Shown here in pieces: positions 60,878-61,900 of a stretch of 64,000 bases of DNA. The stretch lies in assembly GCA_037379345.1 (NCBI GenBank), contig CM074522.1:21886001-21950000 (forward strand). Reading direction: 5' to 3'. Within the stretch, counting starts at the first letter, position 1. Each line of letters begins with the position of its first letter. Below the pieces are notes generated by a model, which worked only from the letters and a program-made list of their open reading frames with translations, did not search any database and was not told the origin of the DNA. Source of the DNA: Perna viridis (Eukaryota). A program made the position numbers and the translations under genes.

Positions 60878-60915
60878 TATATATATAGCTGACGGCATTG
60901 ACTACCGACATTTCT
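60878..60915 (+). promoter_or_regulatory. Candidate TATA promoter of eIF5A-2
   Basis: TATATATATAG at ~60878 with an Inr-like acatt about 30 nt downstream. There is no ATG between it and 61038. Confidence 0.5.
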
Positions 60916-61037
60916 GTTCGTTGTGCAATACAATATTTTCAATACACATTGGGTTAAAGCGTTATAGTCAGCAGAGGCGACCCAACTATTCACCAGAGAG
61001 CACGTTATAGAATTCAAGGATCTATTAGAGATAAAGG

Positions 61038-61057
61038 ATGAGAAATAAAGGAAAAAG
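61038..61057 (+). CDS. eIF5A-2 predicted first coding exon (MRNKGKR)
   Basis: aggATG context and a strong AAG|gtaagc donor. The phase-2 junction (AG|A) splices in frame to 61714, and the next exon has no in-frame start ATG of its own. Confidence 0.7.
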
Positions 61058-61713
61058 GTAAGCTGCAATTATGGTGTTCCTCACAAGTATCTTTTGACAG
61101 CTTATGTGGTTATATAGATAGGTCGTTTTCGATCTATTGTCGCATTCTGTTCATGTAACTTTGCTAACTCGGGGCCGGATCCACACACTTTGAATAGGGG
61201 TACCAGCGGAGGTTCCTCAGAAAAGTGGGGTTAATGACAAGAAAATGACAAACTGTCCAACAAAAAGGGGGTACTAACCCCTGGATCGCCACTGCATTCT
61301 TTTGTTCACTCATATGATGATTATATTTTGCTGTTAGTGGCATTAATCCACGTAAAGATGCGTAATTTCACAGTGTATCATGGATTCTACCAACTTTAAA
61401 ACTTCTCAAGCGATGTAATATGAAGGTCATTTAAAATAATTTTTGAGGCTATCAAGTTGTTACCCCAAACCGCCATTAATTTATTATAGCCAGCTTTGTC
61501 TAGTATGTTGGTTCCTCAGTATCTATTTTATCCGCTTTTCCATTTCGATTCAATTAATGTCACTAATAGTTAAAGTAAAGAATTTACGAAGAAGGGGAGG
61601 CGTTGACTGGCTAAAGAAGGGGGTCCCGCGCCAGTGATGTTCTATATACATGATAAATCTCCCCATTGCATCCTTTAATGCTCACACACAAAACACTACT
61701 TCATATTTTACAG

Positions 61714-61900
61714 AAAACAGACTAAGGCAGGCGCCGAGGCCATCGATGACGACTTCGTGCAAGGTGATGCCGAGGCATCCCAGACCTACCCTGAGCAGTG
61801 TTCTAACCTTAGAAAGAATGGTTATGTCTGCCTCAAGGACAGGCCTTGTAAAATTGTAGAGATGTCAACATCGTCTCCCGGTAAACATGGCCACGCGAAG
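61714..61900 (+). CDS. eIF5A-2 (divergent paralogue) exon ([62 protein letters not shown])
   Basis: tttacag acceptor and AAG|gtaaaa donor at the same position as in eIF5A-1. Confidence 0.93.

Follow-up and report, generated by a model that had tools for sequence, protein, structure and literature searches.

The tandem eIF5A genes and their transcripts

The window that we analysed, a stretch of 64,000 nucleotides of Perna viridis DNA (G000:C12:21886001-21950000, in a genome of 723 Mb), holds a tandem pair of eIF5A genes, both on the + strand. The first of them, eIF5A-1, is canonical. Its non-coding exon 1 ends at 48809..48841, without an in-frame ATG and followed by a donor GT at 48842, and the rest of the gene occupies 52106..57866, with the ATG at 52113 and coding exons at 52113-52286, 54404-54508, 56238-56369 and from 57803, which are separated by three phase-0 introns and encode 157 aa. 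Joints of this gene are present in contigs of runs X5, X7 and X19; the one from 48841 to 52106 comes from X5, with 33 letters on its short side, and X19 has a matching loose end of 10 letters. When the spliced 5′UTR (48809-48841 plus 52106-52112) is read in frame, about ten residues match the extension of the Mytilus edulis model P0242, so that conservation of this UTR extends across mussels. Its frame is open, with a TTG and no ATG, and it may represent either an element conserved within the UTR or an extension that starts at a non-AUG codon. At the other end of the gene, one contig carries the long 3′UTR (57803-59650) as far as 59650, and others break at about 58485-58507 and at 59358, breaks that may represent alternative polyadenylation.

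Repeats are found within and around both genes. An element of about 200 nt with inverted ends, which looks like a MITE, lies in introns of both (56450-56650 and 62600-62810) and again downstream (L005:4760-4970); the first of these copies shows about 82% similarity to the last, and very many contigs match the element in every run. Intron 1 of eIF5A-1 contains an inverted pair of about 120 nt (49480-49700 and 49980-50120) around 49700-49980, with very high contig depth, likely another non-autonomous transposon. On a larger scale, both genes are held by a 16,039-nt tandem copy that covers 50215-64000 and beyond and recurs at the window-equivalent positions 66250-82282 (L005-L007). The two copies align with 0 mismatches, and they differ by 8 gap letters, each a T or a G. 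The eIF5A-1 of the second copy is without exon 1. This is likely a false duplication in the assembly, the other reading being a very recent real one.

The second gene, eIF5A-2, is spliced and has five exons. The 5′UTR part of exon 1 (60897..61037) has no ATG; the longest contig, X6, begins at 60897 and X2 at 60946, ends that do not fix the true transcript start. The coding part (61038..61057) begins with the ATG, which has A at −3, and reads MRNKGK over six codons before the intron interrupts an Arg codon after its second base. Intron 1 (61058..61713) is a phase-2 GT..AG intron of 656 nt. Exon 2 (61714..61900) encodes the remainder of a basic tail, including the AAG at 61724, an acidic stretch, the N-domain and the hypusine loop SSPGKHG; exon 3 (63083..63187) reads CPASHN where the canonical sequence is CPSTHN; exon 4 (63699..63833) encodes the OB-fold domain, with P115 (human numbering) replaced. 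Intron 4 starts at 63834..64000 and extends past the window end, and exon 5, with the stop codon (L005:3749) and the 3′UTR, lies just past it at L005:3686-4086. Both Pfam domains score above their cut-offs, PF21485 (the IF5A-like N-terminal domain) at E=1.4e-22 and 79.8 bits, and PF01287 (the C-terminal OB fold) at E=4.7e-11 and 43.1 bits.

The sequence-only reading of this DNA had proposed that the ATG at 61038 is joined in frame to the eIF5A body through a 61057/61714 junction, and had named an absent junction or use of an acceptor at 61720 as the outcomes that would speak against it. The contigs bear the proposal out: this GT..AG joint is present in all four runs that were counted (X1, X2, X5 and X6, from four studies), where its shorter side is 78-159 letters long, and two contigs span all five exons. 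No joint from 61057 to any other acceptor is listed in the contigs of these four runs. Of the four AG sites tested, the acceptor at 61714 alone continues the reading frame of the 20 coding nucleotides in exon 1; the candidates 61721, 61727 and 61731 are out of frame and absent from the listed joints. When the 213 GT sites from 57900 to 61700 were scored with a rough weight matrix that we made ourselves, the donor GT at 61058 came top. These comparisons used assembled contigs, in which rare isoforms are dropped, from 7 of the 24 listed runs, X7 and X19 falling outside the count for this joint. The runs were taken as RNA by guess, and the GT..AG joints at all four introns argue for RNA. Contig depths of 3.6-245 for eIF5A-2 (six runs) and 450-4789 for eIF5A-1 (three runs) are unfit for ranking genes or tissues. 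Two features are particular to run X5. Before 60973 its contig has 26 unaligned letters, which imply a start within one base of that of X2, and an allelic mismatch is a simpler reading than an extra upstream exon. In exon 2 it has other letters at 61810 and 61824, one silent and one changing Tyr to Phe, and these are probably alleles.

The location of the locus inside a suspect 16-kb duplication could point to an artefact or a transcribed pseudogene, with an assembly error at the lost ATG, a wrong acceptor or an untranslated RNA. We give this hardly any credence, as both the joint and the AAG at 61724 are found in four of four runs, the 170-aa frame is intact, and conserved orthologues exist in four named species of Mytilus. 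The gene model of eIF5A-2, a spliced gene with a frame of 170 aa, is real.

Position of the start codon and its history

The ATG at 61038 is the first AUG of the eIF5A-2 transcript, with none between 60897 and 61038 in the spliced RNA. It opens the 170 codons, and the next in-frame Met is codon 57. As the sequence-only reading had noted, the paralogue has actAAGGCA at 61721-61729 and its unspliced frame begins after a TAA at 61676, with no Met ahead of the eIF5A body; we place this frame at 61679-61987. That reading had also allowed for a true ATG at 61724 hidden by an assembly error, a candidate that we reject: no other letter is listed at 61724-61726 in the contigs of the four runs, and a DNA-type contig (X15), possibly from the assembly's own source, spans 59411-62616 with 0 differences. 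Translation of eIF5A-2 must start in exon 1, and the canonical Met is gone.

How this arrangement arose can be approached by comparing the two genes. The first acceptor lies 7 nt before the ATG in eIF5A-1 and 10 nt before the AAG in eIF5A-2, in the same phase, and three further introns, all of phase 0, interrupt both genes at the same places. The position of intron 1 at the site of the canonical 5′UTR intron fits the recruitment of a former 5′UTR exon, as had been suggested from the sequence, and because the acceptor phase is the same, a new ATG within that exon could be read in frame with the eIF5A body. Likeness between the first exons of the two genes is not detectable, however, as 518 of 2000 shuffles score as high; for intron 1, the best local score was reached by 5 of 100 shuffles. 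Exon 1 of eIF5A-2 matches only itself and its tandem copy in a search of the genome. Because the first exons resemble each other no more than chance would give, the descent of exon 1 from the old 5′UTR exon is drawn from position alone, and we regard it as plausible.

The same reading had held that the start codon itself was exchanged for AAG. Loss of the canonical Met stands, but the exact change depends on a nucleotide alignment that sets ATG opposite AAG with 8 of 10 matches and needs a split gap downstream. Protein alignments place the lost Met 2-4 residues further on than the AAG, and the Mytilus proteins have Glu at the equivalent position, with Lys one codon earlier. We consider an exact ATG-to-AAG swap at 61724 to have about even odds. 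The basic tail is shared with Mytilus, as is the missing canonical Met.

A divergent mussel clade with an altered hypusine loop

Orthologues of eIF5A-2 were found in M. galloprovincialis, M. edulis, M. trossulus and M. californianus. Among the 15 of 19 cluster members covered, these proteins are 174-176 aa long, with MKNKNK at the start, no Met in the canonical zone, and the motifs SAPGKHG and CPAHHN; entries such as OPL21245.1, XP_052072167.1, XP_063410607.1 and XP_071145869.1 are labelled 'eIF5A-1-like' or 'eIF5A-2' by automatic annotation. The seven Mytilus-type sequences are near-identical to each other, so that together with eIF5A-2 they make only two independent lineages. In a tree of 33 rows, eIF5A-2 groups with the divergent Mytilus proteins (support 100/100) and eIF5A-1 with the canonical ones (98/91), and the stem of the divergent clade measures 0.48 changes per column. 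The tree does not date the duplication, and an origin in the mussel lineage, with all the mussel genes together, is not rejected (p-AU 0.33). eIF5A-2 is 65% identical to its neighbour eIF5A-1 and 73-75% to its Mytilus counterpart, and the corresponding value for eIF5A-1 is 80%, which indicates similar rates of change in both genes after the species split. A fused Mytilus model, P0247, in which the canonical gene runs into the paralogue just past its basic opening residues, suggests at the protein level that Mytilus has the same tandem order and the same exon-2 boundary. eIF5A-2 is an old mussel paralogue under constraint, orthologous with the Mytilus genes. Among the best 120 matches of each homologue search there was no orthologue beyond Mytilus, and an exact degenerate pattern of the altered loop matched 0 of the metagenome contigs; other mussel genera may be absent from these collections.

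Few eukaryotic proteins are as conserved as eIF5A, and its hypusine loop hardly varies. eIF5A-2 departs from the invariant ten-residue canonical loop, which marks it as a divergent paralogue and not a canonical eIF5A: SSPGKHG contains the changes K47S and T48P. Among 360 proteins, which were the top matches of homologue searches and not a random sample, 347 have one and the same 11-residue motif, 8 the mussel form, 2 TSKPGKHG and 1 another variant, and 2 gave no match. The TSKPGKHG proteins, P0163 and one other eIF5A in the database, show that Pro at 48 arose elsewhere with K47 kept. Five positions, K47, T48, S75, T76 and P115, are replaced in all eight divergent proteins, positions that 185 canonical proteins conserve at 100%, 99.5%, 100%, 99.5% and 91%, respectively. 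K50, the hypusine acceptor in GKHG, is kept in eight of eight, and eIF5A-2 also retains the equivalents of R26, G49-H51, G106, R109 and E122. The substitutions in and near the loop had gone unremarked in the sequence-only reading and are probably a more important change than the tail on which it centred.

Published work bears on several of these sites. K47 can be acetylated, and the acetylated form of eIF5A is reported to be nuclear (PMC8705083); T48N and P115S are described as human disease variants, and T48N as lowering hypusination in yeast (PMC7864902); and the main chain of T48 is reported to contact Asn173 of DHS (PMC10042821). Taken together, the last two reports suggest that T48P may block modification. 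On the other hand, the archaeal peptide PGKHGSAK is reported to be about 99% deoxyhypusinylated in Haloferax (PMC5178350), which suggests that Pro at 48 can be compatible with it. The genome has one DHS locus, a count to be read as a lower bound, and on that count we set aside a dedicated DHS paralogue. Archaeal aIF5A has Lys at the 47-equivalent position, which fits the LysC peptide from Haloferax, and is modified by a different enzyme.

The basic tail and the proposed role of eIF5A-2

Counting confirmed that six of the first 11 residues of eIF5A-2 are K or R, as given for the 21-residue opening in the sequence-only reading. Over the first 15 residues the net charge is +4 to +5 in the divergent proteins of both lineages (+5 in eIF5A-2) versus −5 to −6 in two canonical mussel proteins. 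Within 343 proteins in which start Met and core motif were both present, only the eight divergent ones and one extended model that keeps its internal Met combine four or more K/R in the first 12 residues with no more than a single acid. The acidic N-terminal segment is kept in eIF5A-2, behind the basic tail, so that the protein does not open on it as canonical ones do.

Part of this could be accounted for by composition: an A-rich UTR captured when the old ATG was lost would supply K, N and R by default, with the protein serving as a redundant back-up eIF5A. The tail codons are 67% A, a composition at which six K/R are expected half the time, and residues 7-19 are the most variable of the Mytilus rows (8 of 18 variable columns, with indels); yeast eIF5A without residues 1-19 is, moreover, reported to support growth (PMC13376067). 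The flanking UTR, however, is merely 33-43% A, and six K/R in 10 open codons have P=0.001 under the exon's own UTR composition and P=0.013 under that of its last 30 nt. The pattern M-[KR]-N-K-x-K is common to both lineages, in proteins that differ at a quarter of their sites, and residues 1-6 do not vary between the Mytilus rows, so that constraint seems limited to these six residues and the charge. Five shared and then fixed substitutions at near-invariant sites are also unlike simple redundancy, and we consider a neutral tail improbable.

The tail had also been described as NLS-like, and nuclear or nucleolar targeting deserves weight as an alternative: eIF5A-2 would be a mostly nuclear, poorly hypusinated eIF5A in which a fixed nuclear residence took the place of the acetylation switch at K47. 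The charge of the tail, with six K/R and no acid in the first 12 residues, the loss of the acetylation site and the T48 change would all suit such a protein, and in yeast non-hypusinated eIF5A is reported to accumulate in nuclei, where eIF5A represses transcription (PMC13376067). The same source reports the acidic N-terminus as an import signal of yeast eIF5A, and that segment is kept in eIF5A-2 and not replaced, so that import may already be provided for. K50 and the ribosome-facing residues are likewise kept. The classical NLS patterns are K[KR]x[KR], the Kosugi-type classes 1, 2 and 4, and the bipartite form, and none of the eight divergent proteins matches any of these five within the first 30 residues; most Mytilus tails lack an adjacent basic pair in the first ten. 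A classical (importin-alpha) NLS in the tail is not supported, though the tail may hold a non-classical signal, and nuclear specialisation as a whole seems to us rather unlikely, though less so than a neutral tail.

We find it very improbable that the tail is a mitochondrial presequence. A basic N-terminal extension has a human precedent in eIF5A1 isoform A, for which this destination was proposed (PMC8705083), but none of the eight divergent proteins has L, I, V, F or W at residues 2-12, Lys prevails over Arg, and acids follow soon after. Without bulky hydrophobics an amphipathic helix cannot form, and eIF5A-2 has neither the Arg-rich amphipathic helix nor the kept canonical internal Met that mark an extension of the isoform A type.

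Overall, our view leans slightly towards eIF5A-2 being a spliced tandem duplicate, shared with Mytilus, that is likely a specialised ribosome-binding elongation factor, with a tail predicted to bind RNA and not to act as a classical NLS. Its structure and history we hold as close to certain, and the mechanism, that of a specialised eIF5A with a basic tail that still binds the ribosome, we propose tentatively, as not quite an even bet. After the duplication, an ATG in the old 5′UTR exon would have come into frame across the phase-compatible intron and the old ATG would have been lost, perhaps through change into the AAG at 61724. The long stem would then represent a burst of change, after which constraint returned. 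K50 is probably still modified, as the archaeal PGKHG is, perhaps less efficiently. In the canonical factor, basic side chains of the loop are reported to contact 25S rRNA, and the N-terminal extension to lie between uL1 and eL42 (PMC4770232). Loss of K47 would remove one rRNA-facing positive charge together with an acetylation switch and so weaken the rRNA contact, and the +5 tail, placed ahead of the acidic segment between uL1 and eL42, would make further contacts, with rRNA or tRNA, in the region of the L1 stalk. The basic tail could also retain free eIF5A-2 in nucleoli.

Should the protein be a dedicated second eIF5A, with its rewired loop and RNA-binding tail serving one tissue or one class of mRNA, or acting with little or no hypusine, the byssus and collagen-like foot proteins, which are rich in Pro-Pro, would be candidate clients, for example. 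This we consider unlikely, to about the same degree as the neutral tail. If true, a specialised elongation factor would have evolved naturally in mussels through substitutions at sites where changes cause human disease. In any case the paralogue offers a natural test of T48P as a DHS substrate, of the loss of the K47 acetylation site and its effect on localisation, and of specialisation by tissue or mRNA class. A gill proteome contains one 17.5-kDa 'eIF5A like' spot that is not assignable to either paralogue (PMC5302490). We found no description of a mussel eIF5A paralogue in the literature searched.

Compared with known systems, eIF5A-2 shares with canonical eIF5A (human eIF5A1 isoform B, yeast Tif51A and eIF5A-1 of the window) both Pfam domains, K50, the acidic segment and three phase-0 introns, and differs in the absence of Met at the canonical start, the basic tail and the five replaced residues. 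The Mytilus orthologues, one of which matches a solved eIF5A-1 chain at E=2e-62, resemble it in the basic start, the PGKHG loop and the tandem order, and differ in a tail 4-5 residues longer, Ala instead of Ser at 47 and His at 76. More distant matches to structure chains had E values of about 1e-12, for chains that we take to be archaeal aIF5A, and about 1e-8 for HEX-1, a fungal protein that left translation for a structural role. In archaeal aIF5A, too, a Pro lies two positions ahead of the acceptor Lys (PGKHG), which carries its modification in Haloferax (PMC5178350), and the protein is described as lacking an N-terminal extension (PMC4770232); the Pro at 48 in eIF5A-2 is convergent with it. 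Human eIF5A1 isoform A (184 aa) gains 30 residues from an upstream AUG, with retargeting to mitochondria proposed (PMC8705083), but it is a minor isoform encoded by the canonical gene itself, with internal Met and loop unaltered, whereas in eIF5A-2, which has a gene of its own, the extension is obligatory and the loop has changed. Other eIF5A duplicates reported to have diverged in expression or role (PMC7909649) are the stage- or tissue-restricted Entamoeba eIF5A1 and vertebrate eIF5A2, as well as HEX-1 of fungi, all of them from independent duplications. The Mytilus sequences were already in RefSeq under a generic name, and what is new here is their recognition and not a new kind of system.
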